Source: a virus. Taken from it: a stretch of 64,000 nt of DNA. The position numbers were made by a program, and so were the translations under genes. The notes beneath the pieces were generated by a model. The model had not been told where the DNA came from and did not search any database. It saw only the letters and a list, made by a program, of their open reading frames with translations. Position 1 is the first letter of the stretch. Each line of letters starts with the position of its first letter. The stretch lies in the IMG/VR virus record IMGVR_UViG_3300023504_000004, positions 16,857 to 80,856 of that record; one strand, written 5' to 3'. Below are positions 4,651-48,779 of the stretch, in pieces.

Positions 4651-4863
4651 ATGAAAATTCGGCAAAATGAAGTTTTGTGGTTGTCTAATAAAGGAAATGT
4701 AGCTGTGACATATTCACAATTTGATCTTGGCGAAAAATATAAAATATACCGAAAAGTAAATTACGGAGATAATTCCGTATGGGAATATAATAATACTTTT
4801 GGAACCCAAGGCGAAGCAATAAGTTATGCAAAACAAATTTTAGACAGGGAGGTCGAAAGATAA
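4651..4863 (+). CDS. Hypothetical protein
   Basis: ORF packed tightly against the previous stop. SD 'aaaggataacagaag'. Confidence 0.5.
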   Translation: MKIRQNEVLWLSNKGNVAVTYSQFDLGEKYKIYRKVNYGDNSVWEYNNTFGTQGEAISYAKQILDREVER

Positions 4864-4865
4864 TT

Positions 4866-5501
4866 ATGGGAATCATTTATGATAAAAATGCAAAAGAAAA
4901 AGAACTGTACTCGGCATACGGTCTCACCGTATATGGAAAAGAAAATAGATACGATTCGATTTGGTCACCGGATGTGAAATCCGTATTTATTACGTTACGG
5001 ATTTCAGACGGAGAGAAAGACCTGGTCGATGAACATCTTGGGAATAATTGCATCTTCCCAGGCACGTTTAAATCAACAATTGATAATTTCTTATGGTGGA
5101 TCAGTAACGACAAACCAGATGATTATGATGTTAAGTCACATATCCTTAAATGTCTGTGTAGTAGCAACTGTTTGTTTAATACTCAGATCGAGAACAGAAA
5201 ATGGAAAGAAGAACAGCAGAGAAAAAAAGAAGAGAGATGTAGATTAATTGAGAAAGAACGAGAAGTGAAGATATACGCTATCAAGGAATATTGTAAAAAG
5301 AACCATCTTGTTTTTGCTCGAAACTGGAAGGGGGTATATTTGTTCGAGGTTGATAATGAACGTGCAAAAGAAACGCTTGAAAGTGCTAATTCTGATCGAC
5401 TTGACAGTTATATAAGCTATATGAAAAAACACAGTGTTGTAGACGCAAGACTGGTTGCAGATGGAAGTTTAGACAAAATTTACGAATATATTCGGAGGTA
5501 A
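4866..5501 (+). CDS. Hypothetical protein
   Basis: 211-aa ORF. Start overlaps the previous stop, suggesting translational coupling. Confidence 0.55.
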   Translation: MGIIYDKNAKEKELYSAYGLTVYGKENRYDSIWSPDVKSVFITLRISDGEKDLVDEHLGNNCIFPGTFKSTIDNFLWWISNDKPDDYDVKSHILKCLCSSNCLFNTQIENRKWKEEQQRKKEERCRLIEKEREVKIYAIKEYCKKNHLVFARNWKGVYLFEVDNERAKETLESANSDRLDSYISYMKKHSVVDARLVADGSLDKIYEYIRR

Positions 5502-5507
5502 ATACAT

Positions 5508-6122
5508 ATGGCAGAAATTAGAATTAATACAACCGGTGATGGATGTTGGTGGTTATATGGAAGTTCGGAAGCTTGGAAAGATTATGTCGGCTGCGAGGAT
5601 TTTAATGAGCAGGTAGTCCTGTATGGAAACAGAGATTACAGTGGAATTAAAGAGGCATCTTGGTATCAGAAGGCAAAAGAAATCATTGACAATATCGATA
5701 TTTACGATGACTATCCAGAGGATATGTCTGAAGAAAATAAAGAAGAGATCGGAAAGATTTTGTTAAGCTCATGCAATGATGTTCTGGTGGAAGTGTTACG
5801 GATTTTATATCCTGATGACGAGTTTAAAACCGGCACTATTCGCGGCTATTCTCAGGGAGATTGGGAGTATTACATCGTTAAAGGAGACGTTGATGTAGAG
5901 CGGCTTGAAGCGTATTACTTCGGCAATGTTGTAGATATCTTTGTGAAAGACAACGAAGAAGAATATGGTGATGTTATGACCTGTGAAGAATTGTGGGACG
6001 CCGAAAGAGAAGGATATGAAAAGGCATTTAGAAAGCGATACGAAATTCCTGAAGATGAAGAGTTGAAGATCTATGTGGCTGATGGATATGTACAAACACT
6101 GAATTGGAAAATGGTGAGTTAG
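5508..6122 (+). CDS. Hypothetical acidic protein
   Basis: 204-aa ORF with SD 'cggaggtaaatacat'. Strongly acidic, as anti-restriction-like early proteins often are, but no diagnostic motif. Confidence 0.55.
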   Translation: MAEIRINTTGDGCWWLYGSSEAWKDYVGCEDFNEQVVLYGNRDYSGIKEASWYQKAKEIIDNIDIYDDYPEDMSEENKEEIGKILLSSCNDVLVEVLRILYPDDEFKTGTIRGYSQGDWEYYIVKGDVDVERLEAYYFGNVVDIFVKDNEEEYGDVMTCEELWDAEREGYEKAFRKRYEIPEDEELKIYVADGYVQTLNWKMVS

Positions 6123-6132
6123 GAGGCACGGC

Positions 6133-6453
6133 ATGAGAAGTACGATAGAATACGGAAACAGCATTGTCGATATTGTGCATGGAATTTATAAAGAACTTCC
6201 TGACTGGTATGGAATTTCAGATATTGGATTTGTGTGGCATGGAACGCAGGCCGATCCAGAAATCGAGTACAAAGGTCATCGAATTAACAGCGTGGCCATT
6301 GAGGATACGATGTGGGAAAGATGGATTTACGATAATGACGGAAACCTTCTTCCAGAAAGAGAAAATGATGATGGATTCTCTCGGTTTATGAGAGATAATG
6401 CAGATGAAGTTAGGGAATTGATTGATTTTGTGATGAAAAACGAGGGAAAATAA
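6133..6453 (+). CDS. Hypothetical protein
   Basis: ORF with SD 'ttaggaggcacggc'. Confidence 0.55.
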   Translation: MRSTIEYGNSIVDIVHGIYKELPDWYGISDIGFVWHGTQADPEIEYKGHRINSVAIEDTMWERWIYDNDGNLLPERENDDGFSRFMRDNADEVRELIDFVMKNEGK

Positions 6454-6699
6454 ATGAAAATGGAACAACTAATGGAAATCAGTGCAGGAGATATAAGCCA
6501 GAGTATTAAAAACCAGATTATTACAGTTTATGAAAGGGAAAATATTCCTGGCTTAAACGGATTCGCACTTACATGGGAAGAATTGTGTAAAGATACAGAG
6601 AAATTAGATTGGGAGATTTTAGATATTATGACACATCCACGGAAATATGCGGCGCTGTTAAAAGTGTTTGCCTATTTTCAGGGTATGATGTTGAAATAG
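6454..6699 (+). CDS. Hypothetical protein
   Basis: ORF abutting the previous stop (taaATG). Confidence 0.5.
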   Translation: MKMEQLMEISAGDISQSIKNQIITVYERENIPGLNGFALTWEELCKDTEKLDWEILDIMTHPRKYAALLKVFAYFQGMMLK

Positions 6700-6717
6700 C
6701 AATTTCGGAGGGAAATT

Positions 6718-7266
6718 ATGAAAATTATTATGGTTAGAATCGAGGATAATTCGGGAAAAATTGAAGAAATACAGACAATAAAAAACAGAACAGAAGAGTA
6801 TATTAATGAAAAAGCAAAAACAATAAAGGAATTGCAGGAAGAATGTTTTATGCAGATTTTGGTATATCTGAAATGCGCATACGAAGACTACATTGGGATT
6901 GTCGGAGAAACTACGCCTATAAATGAAGTTAGCTGGAGAGAAAATAGGCTCGATGTTTCAAATGTCACAAGATCCGTAAGGATATGTGTTAGAAAACATG
7001 ATGTAATCATTGATTTTGATTATTCCGGTACATTTAGTTGCGATCATACACCGCCAAGAATGGAAGCGGTTTTTAAGAATAATGAAATTATCATTACTAA
7101 ATCGACACCGGATGGAATCTGCGATTTAATGAATCGTTGGGAAAATATTAAGCCAGAATTCCAGAAAAAAATTGACAACGCTTATGATAAAAAGAAAAAA
7201 GAATCCGAGAGAAAGGTTTCGAATGCAGATTATATGTTAAAAATTGCAAAAGGGTTCAGAGTATGA
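6718..7266 (+). CDS. Hypothetical protein
   Basis: 182-aa ORF with SD 'tttcggagggaaatt'. Confidence 0.55.
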   Translation: MKIIMVRIEDNSGKIEEIQTIKNRTEEYINEKAKTIKELQEECFMQILVYLKCAYEDYIGIVGETTPINEVSWRENRLDVSNVTRSVRICVRKHDVIIDFDYSGTFSCDHTPPRMEAVFKNNEIIITKSTPDGICDLMNRWENIKPEFQKKIDNAYDKKKKESERKVSNADYMLKIAKGFRV

Positions 7267-7298
7267 AAAGTAGAAAAATGTTTTTTGGAGGGAAATTC

Positions 7299-7457
7299 AT
7301 GAAAAAAGAATATAGCGTCGTAGGAGAAGAATTACAGGAAATCATGGAGCTGATTTTAAACGGATATGAGTGCGAAACATTCGAGCCATATGACACTTTA
7401 TATTTGCGACTTGTAAAAGGGAACGAAAAGAAAGAATTTGAATTTATTCAGTGTTAA
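7299..7457 (+). CDS. Hypothetical small protein
   Basis: Internal ATG of ORF 7263-7457, preceded by 'ttttttggagggaaattc'. Confidence 0.45.
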   Translation: MKKEYSVVGEELQEIMELILNGYECETFEPYDTLYLRLVKGNEKKEFEFIQC

Positions 7458-7471
7458 TTTCGGAGGTCATT

Positions 7472-7723
7472 ATGAAGAAAATGATTTATACCTCGTCACG
7501 AGGCAAAAGAATTAAATTCGATTCCTGGACAGACGACAGAAAAGAAAACGGAATCTACTGGGTGAATATGTGTTCAAGTTGCCACAGAAAATACAGAGGT
7601 ATTTTAGGAAAAAGAGCAGAAAAATGCGCATGTGATGGTCTGTACTGCGAGGTGTGCGATTGTGGAAATATAGGTGCAGCATGGTATGTGGATTTTGCTC
7701 CAAACGAAGTAGTTTTTGAATGA
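7472..7723 (+). CDS. Hypothetical Cys-rich (zinc-binding?) protein
   Basis: Internal ATG of ORF 7451-7723 after 'tttcggaggtcatt'. Several CxxC/CxC pairs (CSSCHRKY...CACDGLYCEVCDC). Confidence 0.5.
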   Translation: MKKMIYTSSRGKRIKFDSWTDDRKENGIYWVNMCSSCHRKYRGILGKRAEKCACDGLYCEVCDCGNIGAAWYVDFAPNEVVFE

Positions 7724-16798: not shown

Positions 16799-17134
16799 AT
16801 GATAAAAGTATCAAGCAAATCAGGGAAATCAATAATTGCAGAAGCAATTCAGAAATATAATGGAGCAGTAATTTATTCGTATTATGACGAACTATTACCG
16901 TTTGAAAATGGCTATCATGTCAATTCCGGCAAATATTCTGTTGATGAGTTTTGTGAGGGAATAATGATCGATATTAAAGAAAAGGTAGAAGGAAATGAAG
17001 GGTCGCCATTAAATATGGTAATCATTTATACAAATCTTTCAGATATCTCGGAAATCGATACTTTATACGCATATGCCGAAAGACTTGAAGAGGTTGAAAA
17101 ATTGGTTGGTACGGTAGTAGTAATGACACAATAA
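16799..17134 (+). CDS. Hypothetical protein
   Basis: ORF preceded by 'tttcataaggagaaataaat'. Confidence 0.5.
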   Translation: MIKVSSKSGKSIIAEAIQKYNGAVIYSYYDELLPFENGYHVNSGKYSVDEFCEGIMIDIKEKVEGNEGSPLNMVIIYTNLSDISEIDTLYAYAERLEEVEKLVGTVVVMTQ

Positions 17135-20015: not shown

Positions 20016-20087
20016 TGGGCCATCGCCAAAAGGTAAGGCACAGCACTTTGACTGCTGTATTTGCCGGTTCGAATCCGGCTGACCCAG
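20016..20087 (+). tRNA. tRNA, anticodon loop 'cTTTGac' giving UUG (Gln). One C·A mismatch in the acceptor stem.
   Basis: Hand-folded cloverleaf: acceptor tgggcca/tgaccca, D-arm gcc-aaaaggtaa-ggc, anticodon stem cagca/tgctg, T-arm gccgg-TTCGAAT-ccggc, discriminator g. Confidence 0.55.
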
Positions 20088-20256: not shown

Positions 20257-20337
20257 GCTCCAATGGCGGAAAGGAAGACGCAGTGGACTCAAAATCCACC
20301 GATTTATATCGTGTGAGTTCGAATCTCACTTGGAGCA
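20257..20337 (+). tRNA. tRNA-Leu (anticodon CAA), type II with long variable arm
   Basis: Acceptor gctccaa/ttggagc, U8, 3-bp D-stem, anticodon stem gtgga/tccac with loop cTCAAaa, variable arm cgatttatatcgt, T-arm gtgag-TTCGAAT-ctcac, discriminator a. Confidence 0.65.
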
Positions 20338-39282: not shown

Positions 39283-39648
39283 ATGGTTGAAGAGCTGCAA
39301 GGCATTACTCTTACAAAAGATAATATCCAGTTTCCTGCGCATTTTTACAGAACAAAAACAGGGAAAATTGGTGTTAAGGAGGTTACAAATCAGAAAGTCG
39401 TAGATGAAATAAAGCGAGGAATTGAGTGGCTACGGAGTGAAAAGAATGAATATTATTGGTTTACAAAATATGGAGACCTCTTTCTAATTATATTTAAACA
39501 CGATGGAGGCGGAAAATATAACGTGTTGGTTACGAGGGACTGGTATGAAACAGATATCCCATTCGAAGAAGATGATTACAAATGGGATGAGAAAAGGCTT
39601 TCAGAAGATGATGACGACATGGGGTGGGGAGGAGATGATAATTTATGA
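39283..39648 (+). CDS. Hypothetical protein. The ORF is open upstream to 39082 and there encodes a zinc ribbon, but no canonical start codon is present.
   Basis: Listed ORF from the first ATG. The in-frame upstream stretch (39082-39282) encodes ...YCDQCNSELEITKEDTHIGWLGARFVTCPCCGEES... It follows the SD 'tttcaggaggtg' (39088-39099) but contains no ATG, GTG or TTG. Confidence 0.45.
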   Translation: MVEELQGITLTKDNIQFPAHFYRTKTGKIGVKEVTNQKVVDEIKRGIEWLRSEKNEYYWFTKYGDLFLIIFKHDGGGKYNVLVTRDWYETDIPFEEDDYKWDEKRLSEDDDDMGWGGDDNL

Positions 39649-41258
39649 CGGATTTAGAAACTTGGTTCCTTGATTTTGGCGATGATCATATTTTCAGATT
39701 ATACGATCCATTTTCAATTCGCGTAGTGGAAAAAGTGCGAATTAATAATATGATTGAACTTCCAAACAAAGATGTACTAATTGAATATTCGGAAGTTAAT
39801 AGCGAAGAAGATTTTAATGCAGAATGGGGTAAAGCACCTTTATGTTATAAAAACTCAGTGAGATCAAATTGGAGTATCATCCGCATGATAATCAATTTTG
39901 TTCAAATGCAACTGCCTTACCAGCAACCGAGTAAAGGAGAAAAAATGAGTTGGAATCCTGTGCTGAATAAATTTATTGAAATAAAAAATACATATAAAAA
40001 TAAAATTGGCGAACCAACCTATTCTTATAAATCTGGCTATACAGATGAATCAAAAACATGTCTCGAGCGATGGGTTGAAGAGTTAATTGAAAAATTCCCA
40101 GATAAGCAATTCCAGCAGTACGAAGAACTTCTTTCTTGCTTGGAAATGAATCAATGGAATCAGTTTTTGATAATTAGATATGCCAGATATAGTAATGTAT
40201 ATGACGGTGAGGTCGAGTCTTCTGGCGAAGATTTTTGGGACAGATATAGCGGATTTTATAGAGAATGCAGGAGTGTTGTTATTGACGTTGTAAATGATAA
40301 AATTGTATTAGCACCATTTAAGAAATTTTTTAACATCAATGAACTTGAAGAAACTCGTCTGGAGAATGTAGAACGCAGAATTGCTACCGCGACAAATGTT
40401 GAATTTTCTAATAAACTTGATGGCTCAATGCAATCGGCAACGTGGTATGATGGTCGGATTATTATGGCTGGAAGTCAGGCAATTGATCCAAGTAATTCAT
40501 GGAGATTGCAGGAAGGTTATAGAATGCTTGATTTGCGTCCAGGTTATAAGAGAATGCTGACCGAACACCCTGGTCTGACTTTTATTTTTGAATATATTTC
40601 GCTTAAAGACGCTCATGTTGTTAAATATAAAAAAGAGCAAGAGGGACTATATTTGATTGGCGTGAGAAACAATAATGACGGCAGAGAGTTACCGTACCGT
40701 TCTGTTTTAGATGTCGCATATGTTTATAATATTCCAACAACGGAGATTTTTGATAAAACATTAGACCAGGTAATGGCAGAACTTGATGAAAAATCTTCTG
40801 ATGAAGCAGAAGGGTTTGTCATTAACATTGATGGATATAAGGTTAAAGTCAAGTACAATGACTACGTTCATATCCATAAAGCTTTATCTAAATCATCCTC
40901 AATAAATCTAATCATTAAGTCTATTGCAGACGATACGTTCGACGACCTTCTTTCGAAACTTCCAGAAGCTTATCATGACAATGTAAAAAGAGTTGCAAAT
41001 ATTGTTTTTAATTATATTTGTGACACTGAGAATATCATTAGAAAATATTATAACGAAGCGCCAAAGAACGATAAAAAGAAATTTATGATTTGGGTCAATT
41101 CTAATGTTCCCAAAAAATATCGCGGATTCTGTCGATCTTTGTATCTCGGAGATCCAATTAATGTATTAAAAAAACATAATGGTTCTGGCTATTTAAAACT
41201 TAAAGATATGGGTATCGAGGATTATGGAAAACTATTTGTAAACAATGAGAACGAATAA
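39645..41258 (+). CDS. ATP-dependent RNA ligase (Rnl-type nucleotidyltransferase)
   Basis: Motif I 'SNKLDGSMQSA' (KxDG). Motif IV/V 'EGFVINIDGYKVKVKYNDY' (EGxV...KxK). 537 aa. Start overlaps the upstream stop (ATGA). Confidence 0.65.
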   Translation: MTDLETWFLDFGDDHIFRLYDPFSIRVVEKVRINNMIELPNKDVLIEYSEVNSEEDFNAEWGKAPLCYKNSVRSNWSIIRMIINFVQMQLPYQQPSKGEKMSWNPVLNKFIEIKNTYKNKIGEPTYSYKSGYTDESKTCLERWVEELIEKFPDKQFQQYEELLSCLEMNQWNQFLIIRYARYSNVYDGEVESSGEDFWDRYSGFYRECRSVVIDVVNDKIVLAPFKKFFNINELEETRLENVERRIATATNVEFSNKLDGSMQSATWYDGRIIMAGSQAIDPSNSWRLQEGYRMLDLRPGYKRMLTEHPGLTFIFEYISLKDAHVVKYKKEQEGLYLIGVRNNNDGRELPYRSVLDVAYVYNIPTTEIFDKTLDQVMAELDEKSSDEAEGFVINIDGYKVKVKYNDYVHIHKALSKSSSINLIIKSIADDTFDDLLSKLPEAYHDNVKRVANIVFNYICDTENIIRKYYNEAPKNDKKKFMIWVNSNVPKKYRGFCRSLYLGDPINVLKKHNGSGYLKLKDMGIEDYGKLFVNNENE

Positions 41259-41285
41259 CAGGGAACAAGAAAAAACGAGGTAAAA

Positions 41286-42215
41286 ATGACAATCAAAGAC
41301 ATTGAAACAAAACTTTCGCCTAAACCATCACTCTATGTTATGTGCGGGCTTTCCGGAAGTGGAAAATCCACCATTGCAAAAGAGTATCAGAAAAAGATTC
41401 CTGGTAGCGTGATTATCTCTTCTGATGAGATTAGAGAGGAATTGTGTGACGGAAACCGTGCGGATCAGAGTAAGAACGACGAAGTGTTTAGAGTATTTCA
41501 CGATAGAATCCGAAAAAATTTGGAGAAACATAAGAGTGTAATCGTAGATGCAACCAATATTACAATGAAGTCCCGTAGAGCTATTCTGGGCAAAGTAAAC
41601 GGTCTGGATATTAACAAGATTTGCCTGATCGTTCCGAAACCATACGAGCAATGCCTGGTTGACAACAAACAGCGTGAGTGGCCGGTTCCTGATGAGGTGA
41701 TTGAACACCAGCGCAGTCGGTTCCAGATTCCATTCAAGGAGGAAGGTTGGACGGAGATTAGAATTGAGAGTGGATTTAAGGATCGGCCATATAGATTCGA
41801 TGAGATGATGAAAGGGTATGATCAGAAAAGTCCATATCATGCCTTTACTTTAGACGAGCATTGTCAACTTGCGGCTGACATGTTCTTCGACATCAAAGGG
41901 TATAGACAGCCATGGTATGCTGGAGCACTACTGCATGATGTCGGAAAACTGTTTACGCAGACTATCGATGAAAACGGTGTAGCTCATTACTACTCGCATG
42001 AAAACGTCGGCGCATATGAGATTCTATCATTAAAGCCGAATGAAGAGGATATTGTAGACATTTGTTTCCTGATTAATTATCACATGCTACCGTTCAGTTG
42101 GAATCTTAATTGGCGCGAGCCGACGAGAACTATGAAGAGATGGCAGCGTAGGTTTGGAGAAGAGAAGTATCAAATGTTGTTAGACTTCCATGAGTGTGAT
42201 ATGGCTATGGCGTAG
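41286..42215 (+). CDS. Polynucleotide kinase (P-loop) fused to an HD phosphohydrolase domain
   Basis: Walker A 'CGLSGSGKST', Walker B-like 'VIVDATN'. C-terminal HD motifs 'LDEH', 'LLHDVGK', 'YSHEN', 'INYHM'. SD 'aaaacgaggtaaaa'. Confidence 0.65.
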   Translation: MTIKDIETKLSPKPSLYVMCGLSGSGKSTIAKEYQKKIPGSVIISSDEIREELCDGNRADQSKNDEVFRVFHDRIRKNLEKHKSVIVDATNITMKSRRAILGKVNGLDINKICLIVPKPYEQCLVDNKQREWPVPDEVIEHQRSRFQIPFKEEGWTEIRIESGFKDRPYRFDEMMKGYDQKSPYHAFTLDEHCQLAADMFFDIKGYRQPWYAGALLHDVGKLFTQTIDENGVAHYYSHENVGAYEILSLKPNEEDIVDICFLINYHMLPFSWNLNWREPTRTMKRWQRRFGEEKYQMLLDFHECDMAMA

Positions 42216-45154: not shown

Positions 45155-45541
45155 ATGGAAGATTTAGACCTTAAGCCTTTACATGGTCAAATCAAAAAAG
45201 TTGAAATGACATCTATATCTGGCTACATAAAAAATCAAAAAATATATTTAGAGTTATATATAAAAGCAGAAACGGAGACAAAAATTTATAAATTTAAAAT
45301 TGCTGGGTTTGATACCGGAATCAAGTTTGTAAATGCGTATTTTGATGAAACGCAATCAATAAAAGATTGTGGAGAGCACTTACCGCCTATTAAAACGATT
45401 GAAAAGAAATTAGAGTTAAACGGGAAACAGTATTCAATTGATGATATTACGTTTATGGGAGCCGAAAGCAAACCTAAAGAAGTGACCATGGCTGATATCG
45501 AAGAAAAATTTGGTTGCAAAGTTAAGATTATAGGAGAATAA
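45155..45541 (+). CDS. Hypothetical protein
   Basis: ORF preceded by 'gggagaataaatatATG'. Confidence 0.5.
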   Translation: MEDLDLKPLHGQIKKVEMTSISGYIKNQKIYLELYIKAETETKIYKFKIAGFDTGIKFVNAYFDETQSIKDCGEHLPPIKTIEKKLELNGKQYSIDDITFMGAESKPKEVTMADIEEKFGCKVKIIGE

Positions 45542-45545
45542 ACGT

Positions 45546-46367
45546 ATGACATTATTAGATGGAAAAGCGGCAGCTCAGGAAGTAAAAGACTATTTAAAGA
45601 AGATTGTTGACTTAGGAGTTCATCGGAAACTTGTGATCGTGCAGGTGGGTGATAATCCGGCATCGAATACATATATCAAAAATAAGGTTAAAGCCTGTGA
45701 ATATGTCGGCGTAGAATGCGAGGTAAAACACTTCGAAGAGAGCATTACAGAAGAAAAATTACTCGATGAAATCGATGTTTTAAACGATGACAATTCTGTT
45801 GATGGCATTATCGTTCAGTTGCCACTTCCAGAGCATATCGTTGAAGGACGAGTTACCAATGGGATTAAACCCATTAAAGACGTTGATGGATTCACAAATA
45901 TCAATGCAGGACGATTAATGCATGGTGGTTGTCTCTTTTTTCCAGCTACACCGCTTGGTATTGCAACGTTGCTTGAGAAATACAACATCGAGACAGACGG
46001 CAAGGAATGCGTAATTGTTGGGAGAAGTAATATTGTAGGAAAACCAATGGCTCTCCTGATGCTCGACAAGAATGCGACAGTTACGATTACCCATTCCTAT
46101 ACCAAGAACCTTAAGGAAGTATGCAAGAGGGCTGATATCCTAATCGTCGCAATCGGCAAACCTAAGATGATTAATAGAGAATATATTAAAGAGGGAGCTG
46201 TTGTAATCGATGTAGGAATCAACCAAGACGAGAACGGTAAGCTTTGCGGAGATGTGGATTTTGATGATGTAAAAGAAATCGTATCAGCGATCACACCGGT
46301 TCCTGGCGGTGTCGGTCCAATGACAGTGGCAATGTTACTGAACAATGTGGTAGGAGGAAGAAAATAA
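45546..46367 (+). CDS. folD: Bifunctional 5,10-methylene-tetrahydrofolate dehydrogenase / methenyl-THF cyclohydrolase
   Basis: Co-linear FolD signatures: 'LDGKAAA', 'LVIVQVGDNPASNTYIKNK', 'DGIIVQLPLP', 'DVDGF', 'PATPLG', 'GRSNIVGKPMALLM', 'ITPVPGGVGPMT'. 273 aa. Confidence 0.85.
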   Translation: MTLLDGKAAAQEVKDYLKKIVDLGVHRKLVIVQVGDNPASNTYIKNKVKACEYVGVECEVKHFEESITEEKLLDEIDVLNDDNSVDGIIVQLPLPEHIVEGRVTNGIKPIKDVDGFTNINAGRLMHGGCLFFPATPLGIATLLEKYNIETDGKECVIVGRSNIVGKPMALLMLDKNATVTITHSYTKNLKEVCKRADILIVAIGKPKMINREYIKEGAVVIDVGINQDENGKLCGDVDFDDVKEIVSAITPVPGGVGPMTVAMLLNNVVGGRK

Positions 46368-46428
46368 ACAATATGGTGTGGTGCTGGATTTCGATTCAGT
46401 GCTACACCAGAAAAGAGAATAAATATAT

Positions 46429-46500
46429 AGCGGATTAGTGTAATGGTTAGCACGGGAGACTTTGGATCTCCAGACGTGAGTTCGAATCTCACATCCGCCG
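46429..46500 (+). tRNA. tRNA, anticodon loop 'cTTTGga' giving UUG (Gln-like). A1·C72 mismatch.
   Basis: Hand-folded: acceptor agcggat/atccgcc, U8, D-arm gtgt-aatggtta-gcac, anticodon stem ggaga/tctcc, variable agac, T-arm gtgag-TTCGAAT-ctcac, discriminator g. Confidence 0.55.
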
Positions 46501-46564
46501 TTAATAAATACAATTTGGGAGGTAGATACTTATTTATAGCGATTGGAAAAACGAATATAAAGAT

Positions 46565-47431
46565 ATGGGAGATTATTATATTGGATATACTCCTAAAAAC
46601 AAAACTGAATACTATTTTGACAAAGAATGTTTTGATGTTGTGAAACAGTATAAATGGAGAGTCAACAGCGATTTATATCCAATAACATTTGTTGATGGAA
46701 AAGAAATTTCTATGGTTACATTACTTTTTGGAAATAGTCCTCATACCTATAAAAATGGTAAGAAGAATGATTTACGAAAAGAGAATATATGTAATATAAA
46801 AGGATTTAAAGATAAAGGACGTGTTTTCCTTAATGGATATGTGTCAATTTATATGCCAGAACATAAACGAGCATTTGATAATGGATGCGTATATGAACAT
46901 ATCCTTGTAGCAGAACGAACGTTGGGCAGAGAATTGAAGCCTGATGAATGTGTTCATCACAAAGACCAAAACAGAACAAATAACTCACCAGAAAATTTAA
47001 TGGTCTTCGCGACAAATAATGATCACGTAGCTTTTCACGGAGGAGCAAAAGCGATTCTTACTGACGAAGGAAATTATAAAACAGAAAGATTGGGAATTCC
47101 TGTATATATTTATAGAAATAGAACCGCCAAAGATATAAAAAACAACATTAAAGATACTGGCAGTGTTTATGTTCCAGGATACAATTTATGCCCTTGCTGT
47201 AACGAAAATATTAAATCAAGCGATGCAAAAATGTGCTTAGAGTGTTACAGAAAATTACGAGTAAAAAATATTCCCAAAAAGGAAGAATTAGAAGCGTTGA
47301 TCTATCAAGAATCTTTTGAAGAAATTGGGAGAATGTATAAAGTGTCTGGAAAGGCTGTAACAAAATGGTGTAAAAAATATGGTTTACCATCTCGACGTTC
47401 AGAAATAAATAAAATTTTAGCGACAAAATAA
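46565..47431 (+). CDS. HNH homing endonuclease
   Basis: 'CVHHKDQNRTNNSPENLMVFATNNDHVAFH' is an HNH core. C-terminal 'CPCC...CLECY' zinc finger and an HTH-like tail. Lies between two tRNA genes. Confidence 0.7.
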   Translation: MGDYYIGYTPKNKTEYYFDKECFDVVKQYKWRVNSDLYPITFVDGKEISMVTLLFGNSPHTYKNGKKNDLRKENICNIKGFKDKGRVFLNGYVSIYMPEHKRAFDNGCVYEHILVAERTLGRELKPDECVHHKDQNRTNNSPENLMVFATNNDHVAFHGGAKAILTDEGNYKTERLGIPVYIYRNRTAKDIKNNIKDTGSVYVPGYNLCPCCNENIKSSDAKMCLECYRKLRVKNIPKKEELEALIYQESFEEIGRMYKVSGKAVTKWCKKYGLPSRRSEINKILATK

Positions 47432-47442
47432 AGTCGCTATAT

Positions 47443-47531
47443 GCGAACTTAACTCAACTGGTAAGAGTCACGGCCTTATAAGCCGTATGCCCTGGCAAGG
47501 TTTAAACTCGGTTCGACTCCGAGAGTTCGCA
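47443..47531 (+). tRNA. Type II (long variable arm) tRNA, apparent anticodon UAU (loop cTTATaa), 89 nt
   Basis: Acceptor gcgaact/agttcgc, D-arm actc-aactggtaa-gagt, anticodon stem acggc/gccgt, ~20-nt variable arm with internal tgcc/ggca stem, T-arm ctcgg-TTCGACT-ccgag, discriminator a. Confidence 0.55.
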
Positions 47532-47574
47532 CTGCAGCAATGCAAATATAATATTTTAAAGGAGGATTTCTATT

Positions 47575-47703
47575 ATGGGAATCACATGTAAAATGACAGA
47601 ACTTAAAGGCGTTATGAGAAAAATGGCAAATCAGCAGGAAAAAGAAAAGGCTGAAAGAGTCAACGCAAAGAAGAAAAAAGAGGAGAAGAAGAGTGAAAAG
47701 TAA
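47575..47703 (+). CDS. Lys-rich micro-protein (42 aa)
   Basis: Unlisted ORF with SD 'aaaggaggatttctatt'. Confidence 0.3.
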   Translation: MGITCKMTELKGVMRKMANQQEKEKAERVNAKKKKEEKKSEK

Positions 47704-47896
47704 TATTACTCTTGGTATTTTCTGGATCGGATTAATTTTAGCTCTATATGTGGGTGGCTGGATGATAATCGCAAGATCCATTATTGGAACAATGGTGCTG
47801 TTTTCAGCAGGAAATGGTTCATTTTTGACGATAATCTTGACTATTCTTAAATGTTTTGGCGGGCTTATTGCCGGTTGCCTCATTACATTTGTTTGA
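47693..47896 (+). CDS. Small membrane protein (2 TM helices)
   Basis: Listed ORF with a GTG start. Hydrophobic throughout (ITLGIFWIGLILALYVGGWMIIARSIIGTMVLF...). Confidence 0.4.
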   Translation: MKSNITLGIFWIGLILALYVGGWMIIARSIIGTMVLFSAGNGSFLTIILTILKCFGGLIAGCLITFV

Positions 47897-47936
47897 TATA
47901 TCATCGCAGCTATTATCAGTTAGGAGAATAATACAT

Positions 47937-48197
47937 ATGAAGGTTACAGAGATTACGACAGACAAAGGTACGTACCGATTCAATCAACTTGTGTGTAGCA
48001 ATGGTGGCGTTTTCGATGCTGAAGGTAGTTACAATTACTGTATGGCGATTGGTCCGCACTCAGATGTATTCAGAAAGGTTCAAGCAAGTAAGCTCATCAA
48101 CATGGGTGTAAAAGTGTCAGACAAAGCCGTAAGTAACACCGAATGGTATAAGAATCGGCATAACTTTAGAGATGTAGAAACGGAGGATGAAAGATGA
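47937..48197 (+). CDS. Hypothetical protein
   Basis: Internal ATG of ORF 47856-48197, after 'ttaggagaataatacatATG'. Confidence 0.5.
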   Translation: MKVTEITTDKGTYRFNQLVCSNGGVFDAEGSYNYCMAIGPHSDVFRKVQASKLINMGVKVSDKAVSNTEWYKNRHNFRDVETEDER

Positions 48198-48532
48198 ATT
48201 TCAACATGAATGATGAAATAACAAAAGCACTTGTAAATGTAACCAAAGAGGATTCTATGATGGCAGTAGAAGTCGTAAGACAGGTAATTGATTTATACAA
48301 ACCAGCTGTGTATGGTATCCTGCATGAACTTCTGGGAGTCTATAAAGACTATGCGAACAATACAGAATTCCCAGAAACCAAAGCGAGAGTATCTAAGAAC
48401 GCCTATGATGCATATATGAATGTAGGTTTTACAGCAGATCAGGCAATGGCACTTCTTATTAATGATAACCTGCGACTGATGGAAGCAGCTAAAACATCTT
48501 CTAAAAGTAAAAAGAAAACAGAGAATAACTAA
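48194..48532 (+). CDS. Hypothetical protein
   Basis: ORF with a 4-nt overlap to the previous gene. Confidence 0.5.
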   Translation: MNFNMNDEITKALVNVTKEDSMMAVEVVRQVIDLYKPAVYGILHELLGVYKDYANNTEFPETKARVSKNAYDAYMNVGFTADQAMALLINDNLRLMEAAKTSSKSKKKTENN

Positions 48533-48779
48533 TTAGGCTTTCTATTTGTTCCTGATCCGGTTCGGATCAAAATTCAAAAAAATAAAACATAATATCAAAT
48601 TTCGGTAGGGTGAAAATAGCGCACCCTTGGGTTTTTGTACCCCAAAATCGCTATTTTAGATAGATTTTTACATATTAGCGGTTTGATGATCCGCTTGTAT
48701 CGGTGAGATGCGGGCGTTGAGATAGATTGTTTTTATTAACAATAATTCAAATAAATTAAATTTTTAGGAGGTCCATTTA

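Follow-up and report, generated by a model that had tools for sequence, protein, structure and literature searches.

In the 64,000-nt stretch of viral DNA analyzed here (the window; positions 16,857 to 80,856 of IMG/VR record IMGVR_UViG_3300023504_000004), a gene for an HNH endonuclease lies between two tRNA genes, at positions 46,429 to 47,531 of the window. Comparison with related phages suggests that a mobile cassette, consisting of the nuclease gene and the upstream tRNA-Gln(UUG) (hereafter Gln'), replaced a resident tRNA-Gln, and that the 89-nt tRNA(UAU) downstream, a resident outside the cassette, is functional, belongs to a conserved long-armed tRNA family and is most likely an isoleucine-accepting reader of AUA; taken as a whole, this account is considered rather probable. 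The tRNA–HNH–tRNA layout had been noticed in a first-pass annotation of the window, whose observations were confirmed and whose interpretation was supported in part: ARAGORN and Rfam agreed on both tRNAs, with an intact HNH_3 gene between them (Table 1).

Relatives were found by searching a large protein index with the FolD protein and then looking up the matching contigs. The FolD proteins of contigs L131, L133 and L135 were 92, 83 and 80% identical to that of the window, and gene order was shared; the HNH gene, for which an insertion polymorphism had been suspected, was missing from all three. These relatives carry a bacterial-type tRNA-Gln(UUG), 4 nt, and then a tRNA(UAU) identical to that of the window. 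In alignments and blastn comparisons, homology to them ended at 46428-46430, in the first bases of the upstream tRNA, and restarted at 47440, 3 nt before tRNA(UAU), so that about 1009 nt in the window correspond to about 80 nt, the resident tRNA-Gln, in the HNH-less relatives. Because homology breaks at 46430 and restarts at 47440, the block formed by Gln' and the HNH gene is concluded to have replaced the resident tRNA-Gln. The presence/absence polymorphism at a single locus and its exact junctions, at 46430 and 47440, are those expected of a homing endonuclease. In another contig, L004, the cassette lay within a 5.2-kb block 99.2% identical to the window, the remaining genome being 84-92% identical or unalignable; this block looks like a co-conversion tract. 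A blastn search of 45500-48600 against 50,697 GenBank phages returned FolD-like and short HNH matches and no relative; FolD peptides found no relative in IMG/VR, and the IMG/VR relatives L001 and L002, reached through the YorF-like protein, had no tRNAs nearby.

Both tRNAs of the locus belong to the RF00005 tRNA family: against a gathering score of 29, Gln' scored 64.6 and tRNA(UAU) 57.9 bits, ARAGORN concurred in each case, and both are genuine, which answers the earlier concern that they might be pseudogenes. Gln' is one of two Gln-UUG tRNAs in the window, as had been counted before, the other starting at 20016. Its identity to the resident tRNA-Gln of L131, L133 and L135 was about 65-67%; the resident type itself shared 78-81% identity with the window tRNA-Gln at 20016 and with the tRNA-Gln adjoining P0003, one of the HNH homologues described below. 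With the tRNA upstream of another homologue, P0011 (L290/L292), Gln' shared 69% identity and had in common the acceptor stem, the D arm and a TTAAT trailer, in an unrelated gene neighbourhood. Gln' is linked to an HNH gene in another phage too and is itself part of the mobile unit, a point missed by the first-pass annotation. The A·C mismatch at its 1/72 pair, flagged as non-canonical by cmscan, is real, as had been stated; its description as initiator-like was not upheld, since the P0011 tRNA on L290 has G1·U72 where Gln' has A1·C72. What is conserved is thus a weak 1-72 pair preceding G73, a combination in keeping with glutamine tRNAs and not with initiators.

The nuclease gene, recognized beforehand as that of an HNH homing endonuclease, was verified as an intact open reading frame (ORF) of 288 aa with a match to Pfam HNH_3 (PF13392; residues 110-148, E=1.5e-8) and to PHROG HNH endonuclease families (best 4.9e-28); it carries a CxxC...CxxC stretch resembling a zinc ribbon, and its C-terminus resembles a helix-turn-helix. 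An HNH motif inside an intact ORF is one feature expected of the free-standing HNH homing endonucleases. Its homologues (n=133) were 286-298 aa long. Domain searches gave HNH_3 alone and no GIY-YIG domain, the mark of SegB and other Seg proteins, and a PDB sequence search found no meaningful homologue, with a weak zinc-ribbon likeness to L32 alone. The identical protein (100%) was present on eight metagenomic contigs from different samples; the 1105-bp tRNA–HNH–tRNA unit showed no difference on seven of them and three single-nucleotide polymorphisms on the eighth, L008. The spacer between Gln' and the HNH gene opens with TTAAT and has a GGGAGG at 46517-46522, and spacers starting with TTAAT also followed the upstream tRNA in L287, L290 and L294. 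Loss of an upstream ATG from the window HNH gene was considered and rejected, as P0003 starts at the corresponding codon, the ATG upstream of it being in another frame.

In order to compare loci of the HNH clade, the window was set beside six homologues at 44-60% identity. P0003 (59%; L287-L289) lies between a long-arm tRNA(UAU) and a resident-type tRNA-Gln, and P0007 (57%; L295) between a tRNA(UAU) and a tRNA-Gln(UUG), the tRNA(UAU) coming first in both. P0011 (56%; L290-L292) follows a tRNA(UUG) after 33 nt; P0082 (44%; L294) follows a Gln'-like tRNA after 27 nt and is itself followed, 9 nt on, by another tRNA-like gene; P0042 (48%; L293) comes directly after another tRNA (Arg-CCG according to ARAGORN); and P0002 (60%; L285) is preceded by a tRNA-Gln(UUG) and a degenerate long-arm tRNA(UAU) remnant. 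The clade is systematically placed after tRNA genes: one lay upstream of the nuclease gene in all seven loci and directly adjoined it in six, the intact tRNA-Gln of L285 being about 460 nt from the HNH gene, which is adjoined by the remnant. A tRNA-Gln(UUG) was a neighbour in six of the seven loci, the HNH gene lay between an intact tRNA(UAU) and a tRNA-Gln in three (window, P0003 and P0007), and a Gln' homologue was present in two. Between the tRNA-Gln and P0002 (L285 2040-2500), two degenerate tRNA remnants were found, of which the long-arm tRNA(UAU) copy lacks parts of the D and anticodon arms and is nearly identical to that of the window in its 3' half; they look like scarring by repeated nuclease-driven rearrangement.

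Cleavage and homing by the HNH protein are inferred. During co-infection, the enzyme would cleave alleles that have no HNH gene at the resident tRNA-Gln/tRNA(UAU) pair or next to it, and repair off the HNH-bearing genome would bring in the nuclease gene together with Gln'. The latter would remove the target sequence yet retain a UUG-anticodon tRNA at the locus, and the carrier would thus be immune with its decoding capacity unharmed. Such a pattern has been demonstrated experimentally for SegB of phage T4, which lies in a tRNA cluster, recognizes a tRNA T-loop motif and is missing from sister phages, and whose homing goes with the loss of the recipient's tRNA markers (PMC2330249); its association with tRNA genes is widespread (PMC13096335). 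Both systems have a nuclease gene between phage tRNA genes, relatives with the region free of the nuclease, a spread that replaces (in the window, putatively) the tRNA markers of the recipient, and a widespread nuclease–tRNA association. SegB is a GIY-YIG enzyme and the window protein is of the HNH_3 type, so the likeness is that of a functional analogue and not of a family member; moreover, the window nuclease is tied to an escort tRNA, Gln', replacing a resident with the same anticodon, and its homing is putative. With T4 MobE (PMC2790892), a free-standing HNH enzyme, the window nuclease shares the HNH motif, the intergenic site, the presence/absence polymorphism and a probable co-conversion of the flanks. 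It differs from MobE-type enzymes in that its sequence relatives are metagenomic alone, none with a solved structure, and in that its clade is specifically placed after tRNA genes. HNH genes also occur in the tRNA region of phage T5. Phage tRNA clusters with nuclease genes have been described before, and escort-tRNA substitution is a variant on that theme. The cassette represents a clean natural case of a homing-type nuclease bearing a substitute tRNA with the same anticodon, by which a selfish gene may destroy its target inside a locus of essential function, costless to the phage.

The 89-nt type II tRNA with a UAU anticodon described earlier at the downstream end of the locus was retained under covariance-model folding, with the anticodon loop CUUAUAA. 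It has a 7-bp acceptor stem, a 4-bp D stem (UAACUCAACUGGUAAGAGU), C26, A44, a 5-bp T stem and A73. The textbook class II tRNAs of bacteria are those for Leu, Ser and Tyr, plus Sec. With a variable region of 20 nt (AUGCCCUGGCAAGGUUUAAA; at least 10 nt in class II) and an extra stem-loop, the window tRNA has a class II arm, and with a D stem of 4 bp it has a type I body and not that of a bacterial class II tRNA. In the D-arm region (positions 8-26), which was unconstrained by any search pattern, similarity was highest to the long-arm tRNA(UAU) family (7.6), followed by Val(UAC) and Ile(GAU) (4.6 and 4.4, respectively), and was negative for every Leu, Ser and Tyr group. Because this region is closest to Ile/Val and least like Leu/Ser/Tyr, the tRNA is not a mutated tRNA-Leu. 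Its anticodon arm was exactly shared with about 100 ordinary tRNA-Ile(UAU) genes of 72-79 nt in an IMG/VR scan; no exact copy of a 29-mer from the tRNA was found in IMG/VR.

Within the lineage, tRNA(UAU) had no substitution in L131, L133 and L135, despite flanks that are 92-97% identical, which points to purifying selection on the tRNA sequence, arm included; by our own arithmetic, the chance of no change (0.967^89 × 0.924^89 × 0.927^89) is far below 0.001. The sole variant in the lineage was found in L008, with two changes at positions 2328 and 2375 (window 47474 and 47521): C31U keeps a U·G pair, and a G-to-A change in the T stem gives a C·A mismatch.

The family to which tRNA(UAU) belongs comprises about 50 distinct sequences from phage contigs and from tRNA arrays in Lachnospiraceae genomes; gut and rumen phages and these multi-tRNA arrays are its main carriers. 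In long-variable-region scans, five of eight distinct long-arm tRNA(UAU) had a CC(C)U-NN-CAAGG arm. A scan for the motif yielded 21 distinct phage sequences of the family, that of the window included, and a scan of genomes contributed another 12 intact members (10 distinct), all but 3 of the 12 in genomes of Lachnospiraceae or other Clostridia; about 15 of the 104 matches in the latter scan were real tRNAs, most others being chance matches in coding DNA. A structural alignment of 28 members fitted a 7/5 cloverleaf in every case, with 96.6% of cells paired (99% in the acceptor and 97% in the T stem); of 24 pairs, 19 showed compensatory changes, and covariation scored 0.757, against 0.199 in shuffles and at most 0.16 in slid registers. 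A73, C26 and A44 were present in 28/28 and U12-A23 in 27/28, and position 15 covaried in a Levitt-like manner with position 48, the last base of the variable region (A-U 15, U-G 5, G-C 3). The variable region is 19-24 nt long, with a conserved CC..CAAGG sequence; the core of its stem has two invariant C-G pairs, and next to these, 19 sequences have G·U and 6 have A·C, an exchange that we infer to be isosteric.

An anticodon-free scan, based on the variable arm and T loop, recovered 28 distinct tRNAs, 25 of them with UAU. The other carriers of the arm were a GUU tRNA on L297 (G26, G73, Asn-like), a CUA tRNA with a poor anticodon stem on L302, and a degenerate copy with a CAU loop on L303. In the Lachnospiraceae isolates AC2031 and NE2001, long-arm tRNA(UAU) genes stood within arrays of 19-25 tRNAs; the 19-tRNA array of AC2031 (L216, 4429-5235) lies beside a gene for an R2K-clade ATP-grasp protein (5272-7583). 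The tRNAs of the Lachnospiraceae arrays are divergent and have no encoded CCA, and with the R2K ATP-grasp neighbour this led us to drop the arrays as proof of an AUA decoder of the host's own. On L223 (about 4720-4800) and L272, two further Lachnospiraceae copies were truncated in the T loop and followed by similar foreign sequence (junctions …GGGTTCGA|GGTCTCGTCTGCC… and …GGGTTCGAT|AGTCTCACCTGCC…); these may be integration junctions of a mobile element using tRNA(UAU) as its attachment site.

In order to evaluate how the phage uses ATA, codons of the window were mapped onto the aligned sequences of 142 DNA polymerase III alpha and 116 FolD homologues. Residue frequencies in ATA columns (I.39, L.22, V.14) were indistinguishable from those in ATT and ATC columns (.38,.16 and.17, respectively) and differed from those in Leu codon columns (I.10, L.52; Mann-Whitney p = 5e-4). 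Among 271 codon differences with respect to related phages, ATA was exchanged mostly with ATT (85) and ATC (33), and its amino-acid profile was ATC-like. Judged from these aligned codons, ATA behaves as isoleucine in the phage. The Ile identity set of E. coli includes A73, U12-A23, A35, U36, A37 and A38, in addition to C4-G69, C29-G41 and G34 or lysidine-34, and the bacterial tRNA-Leu elements are A73, tertiary interactions, A20a and a large variable region (PMC9976931). The first six of the Ile elements were all present in the window tRNA; of the Leu elements it has A73 and the large variable region, and its D arm is not Leu-like. Codon usage and identity elements indicate, indirectly, that tRNA(UAU) is most likely an Ile-accepting decoder of AUA.

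Three groups of known tRNAs resemble the family. Class I bacterial tRNA-Ile3(UAU) has been described in Mycoplasma mobile, Bifidobacterium and Neorickettsia (PMC3575796; PMC8450103). Class I tRNA-Ile(UAU) of bacteria and of phages, in which ordinary genes of this kind are common, shares with the family the CUUAUAA loop, a G+C-rich anticodon stem, A73 and a presumed lysidine-free reading of AUA; it has a variable loop of 4-5 nt, and G26 in the phage examples, in contrast to the 19-24 nt, CC..CAAGG, C26 and A44 of the family. The nematode nev-tRNA-Ile(UAU) (PMC3333845; PMC4300185) combines a long variable arm with UAU as well, on a eukaryotic, Leu-type body that is leucylated in vitro, whereas members of the family come from phages and bacteria, have a D arm of type I and go with ATA codons that behave as Ile. 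The allo-tRNA(UAU) of Acidobacteria and other groups (PMC5389517) likewise have a long arm, with UAU as the commonest anticodon, and occupy mobile or accessory loci; they are built on an 8/4 or 9/3 architecture with G73 or U73 and a D arm like that of tRNA-Sec, and the family on 7/5, seen in all 28 aligned members, with A73. No description of a 7/5, C26/A44, CAAGG-arm tRNA(UAU) in phages or Clostridia was found in the searchable literature, outside which most subscription journals lie, and the long-arm AUA-reading family is apparently undescribed. A covarying, phage-spread long-armed tRNA(UAU) joins nev-tRNAs and allo-tRNAs on a short list of exceptions and bears on the reading of AUA without lysidine. 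The treatment of 'Ile-TAT type II' calls in metagenomic phages, which annotation easily dismisses as pseudogenes or mis-folds, is also affected.

Several observations weigh against the proposed account. On the side of the cassette, homing and the target site of the HNH enzyme are putative, the HNH ATG has no adjoining Shine-Dalgarno sequence, and ordinary mosaic recombination could also yield the block shared with L004. As regards decoding, the two deeply aligned proteins contain only 10 ATA sites, and the Ile elements C4-G69 and C29-G41 are missing, the window tRNA having A4-U69, G29-C41 and U34; these minor elements were defined in E. coli, and another host may differ. The IleRS of E. coli charges UAU-anticodon tRNA poorly (PMC3575796), and charging would therefore depend on the host enzyme. 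As regards the arm, its presence on one GUU (L297) and one CUA (L302) tRNA means that it is not simply a mark of Ile, and among the 28 aligned members the variable stem has 2-3 conserved pairs with no Watson-Crick covariation, because of which the arm is regarded as conserved in sequence and not just in shape. Finally, the Lachnospiraceae arrays look accessory, may be mobile and do not establish a core role in host decoding.

Among the alternatives, the HNH gene and Gln' could be ancestral at the locus, deleted from the HNH-less relatives and not currently mobile, as the fixation and identity of the cassette across the eight contigs and the lack of flanking direct repeats would allow. This is distinctly improbable, since the HNH-less alleles are not simple deletions and hold a different, intact tRNA-Gln in place, of the type found at window position 20016 and beside P0003; in addition, the pairing of Gln' with HNH is found again in unrelated genomic surroundings, and on L004 the nearly identical block surrounds the cassette amid a genome of much lower identity. 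For the downstream tRNA, the first-pass annotation had offered descent from a Leu(UAA)-like tRNA through a single change, or else a suppressor or decoy. The long variable region and A73 agree with such an origin, or with a pseudogene, and a single A36U does turn UAA into UAU, and yet neither suggestion survived: the type-I, Ile/Val-like D arm and core, about 50 distinct homologues with the same architecture and UAU, cloverleaf covariation, complete conservation in relatives whose flanks differ by 3-8%, and ATA codons that behave as Ile leave this explanation scarcely any credit. The stop codons of the window are likewise ordinary (TAA 35, TAG 16, TGA 13), with no hint of recoding.

The charging of tRNA(UAU) and the purpose of its arm leave more room. 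An anticodon-blind synthetase, for example LeuRS acting through A73 and the long arm or SerRS, might mischarge it and thereby recode or blur AUA, which is judged improbable. Precedents exist in nev-tRNA-Ile(UAU), leucylated in vitro (PMC3333845, PMC4300185), and in UAU being the predominant anticodon of allo-tRNAs (PMC5389517), and the class-II-like arm, the invariant A73 and the CUA and GUU members, more easily explained if charging ignores the anticodon, tend in the same direction. Opposed to mischarging are the Ile-like behaviour of ATA, both against distant homologues and within the lineage, a D arm least like those of Leu, Ser and Tyr, the retention of UAU in 25 of the 28 variable-arm matches, and the G73 of the GUU member, the Asn discriminator, which indicates that the body tracks the identity rule of its anticodon. 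The variable stem, of about 3 bp, is also short for SerRS. The tRNA could otherwise read AUA as Ile but serve counter-defence, as a nuclease-resistant or surplus stand-in for a host tRNA destroyed by a defence system, the arm giving resistance or acting as bait and the HNH gene spreading or amplifying the locus, as SegB does with tRNA-Tyr against Septu. This idea, unlikely as it is, makes a reasonable second hypothesis because RNA-repair genes lie nearby and because a defence system has recently been found to cut a tRNA variable loop and to be evaded by means of a tRNA-linked homing endonuclease (PMC13096335). Consistent with it are the Rnl1-like ligase and kinase+HD pair in the window, RlaP and ligase genes near HNH homologues, the carriage of the family mostly by phages and mobile elements, and an arm kept in sequence and not merely in structure. 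On the other hand, locus amplification was seen in no contig, the link is drawn by analogy, we know of no defence system that targets tRNA-Ile(AUA), and counter-defence is compatible with AUA decoding by a resident tRNA rather than exclusive of it. More tentatively than the cassette and AUA-decoder account, it is possible that the CC..CAAGG arm, with C26 and A44, constitutes a portable, sequence-specific module of a new class-II-like tRNA class, read by a dedicated partner, with the HNH clade helping to move the loci. Such a class would consist mostly of AUA decoders with rare GUU and CUA members, circulating in gut and rumen phages and in accessory arrays of Lachnospiraceae, and candidates for the partner would be a U34 modification enzyme limiting reading to AUA, a specialized IleRS, or a factor of defence or counter-defence directed at tRNAs.

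Table 1. Features of the tRNA–HNH–tRNA locus and of other genes mentioned in the text (window coordinates).
Feature	Position	Strand	Basis or remark
Rnl1-like RNA ligase (PF09511), then P-loop kinase + HD-domain protein	39645-42215	+	
tRNA-Gln(UUG), second in window	20016-20087	+	
tRNA-Leu(CAA)	20257-20337	+	
FolD, full-length methylene-THF (tetrahydrofolate) dehydrogenase/cyclohydrolase	45546-46367	+	
16-bp hairpin after FolD stop	46374-46409	+	Outside replaced tract; kept in relatives
Junction motif GAAAAGAGAATAAATATATAG	46410-46430	+	Left boundary of replacement; last homology to HNH-less relatives
tRNA-Gln' (UUG; A1·C72, G73, G37)	46429-46500	+	ARAGORN, Rfam RF00005
Replaced tract, ~1009 nt (tRNA-Gln' + spacer + HNH + hairpin)	46431-47439	+	Alignments, blastn breakpoints
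Spacer, 64 nt, tRNA-Gln' to HNH	46501-46564	+	Read from sequence
HNH_3 endonuclease gene, free-standing, 288 aa	46565-47431	+	PF13392, PHROG
Hairpin around HNH stop codon	47418-47439	+	Fold energy vs shuffles
89-nt long-variable-arm tRNA(UAU)	47443-47531	+	ARAGORN, Rfam RF00005

The stem-loop reported earlier at the HNH stop codon was found to have 7 bp and an 8-nt loop holding the TAA (47429-47431), with a folding energy of -10.1 kcal/mol (z = -4.7 vs shuffles); the 6-bp core first noted corresponds to 47419-47438, and the structure ends 3-4 nt before the tRNA. It has no T-run on the + strand and was terminator-like on the - strand alone in a terminator scan, by which a role as + strand intrinsic terminator was rejected. 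It was also rejected as a conserved feature of the HNH clade, being missing from that position in six homologous loci. Possibly, the hairpin protects the 3' end of the HNH mRNA after RNase P frees the downstream tRNA. The hairpin after FolD was more stable (-22.7 kcal/mol, z = -6.5), none of 200 shuffles being as stable, and was aligned and conserved in L008, L131, L133 and L135; no T-run follows it, and a role in processing or termination upstream of the tRNA genes is conceivable.

The sequence AAAAGAGAATAA at 46411-46422 was one of 13 matches (at most one mismatch), all on the + strand, against 3.1 expected. It is a recurrent gene-junction motif, as had been recognized; the accompanying suggestion that it marks a former gene start did not hold, as the motif also precedes tRNA-Gln in HNH-less relatives. 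A 47-aa ORF was observed between FolD and tRNA-Gln in L133 (6857-7034), which has no HNH gene, and in L008 (1115-1292), which has one. This indel is flanked by 15-nt direct repeats (CAGAAAAGAGAATAA), with the junction motif, which the ORF uses, duplicated around it. All four combinations of presence and absence of the 47-aa ORF and of the HNH gene exist; therefore, the two polymorphisms are independent, and the HNH unit is not at a former gene start.

Long variable regions, in tRNAs of 84-92 nt, were also observed on phage Gln-UUG, Lys-UUU and Arg-ACG tRNAs (L144 7751-7842, L116 430-518, L168 2344-2428, L176 129-214 and L170 3455-3543), with arms unrelated to the CAAGG family, and long arms on tRNAs other than Leu, Ser and Tyr may be commoner in metagenomic phages than assumed. 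A true Leu-type class II tRNA(UAU), with a Leu-like D arm, was found in a Woesearchaeota metagenome-assembled genome (L228 1882-1971) beside a tRNA with a UUA anticodon; this is a phenomenon distinct from the phage family.

The window derives from a large gut phage genome with 36% G+C, the + strand of the window carrying all genes, and the longest contig with the HNH protein was 133 kb. Genes in the genome include FolD, a YorF-like gene and replication genes of the DnaB, RecJ, PolIII-alpha and RecD types. The Rnl1-like RNA ligase and the P-loop kinase + HD-domain protein (Table 1) resemble T4 Rnl1 and Pnk as a tRNA/RNA-repair pair, and in L131 and L135 a gene for an RlaP nucleotidyltransferase lies between the two. 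The phage FolD, with about 60% identity to bacterial enzymes, represents an auxiliary metabolic gene kept throughout the phage lineage.

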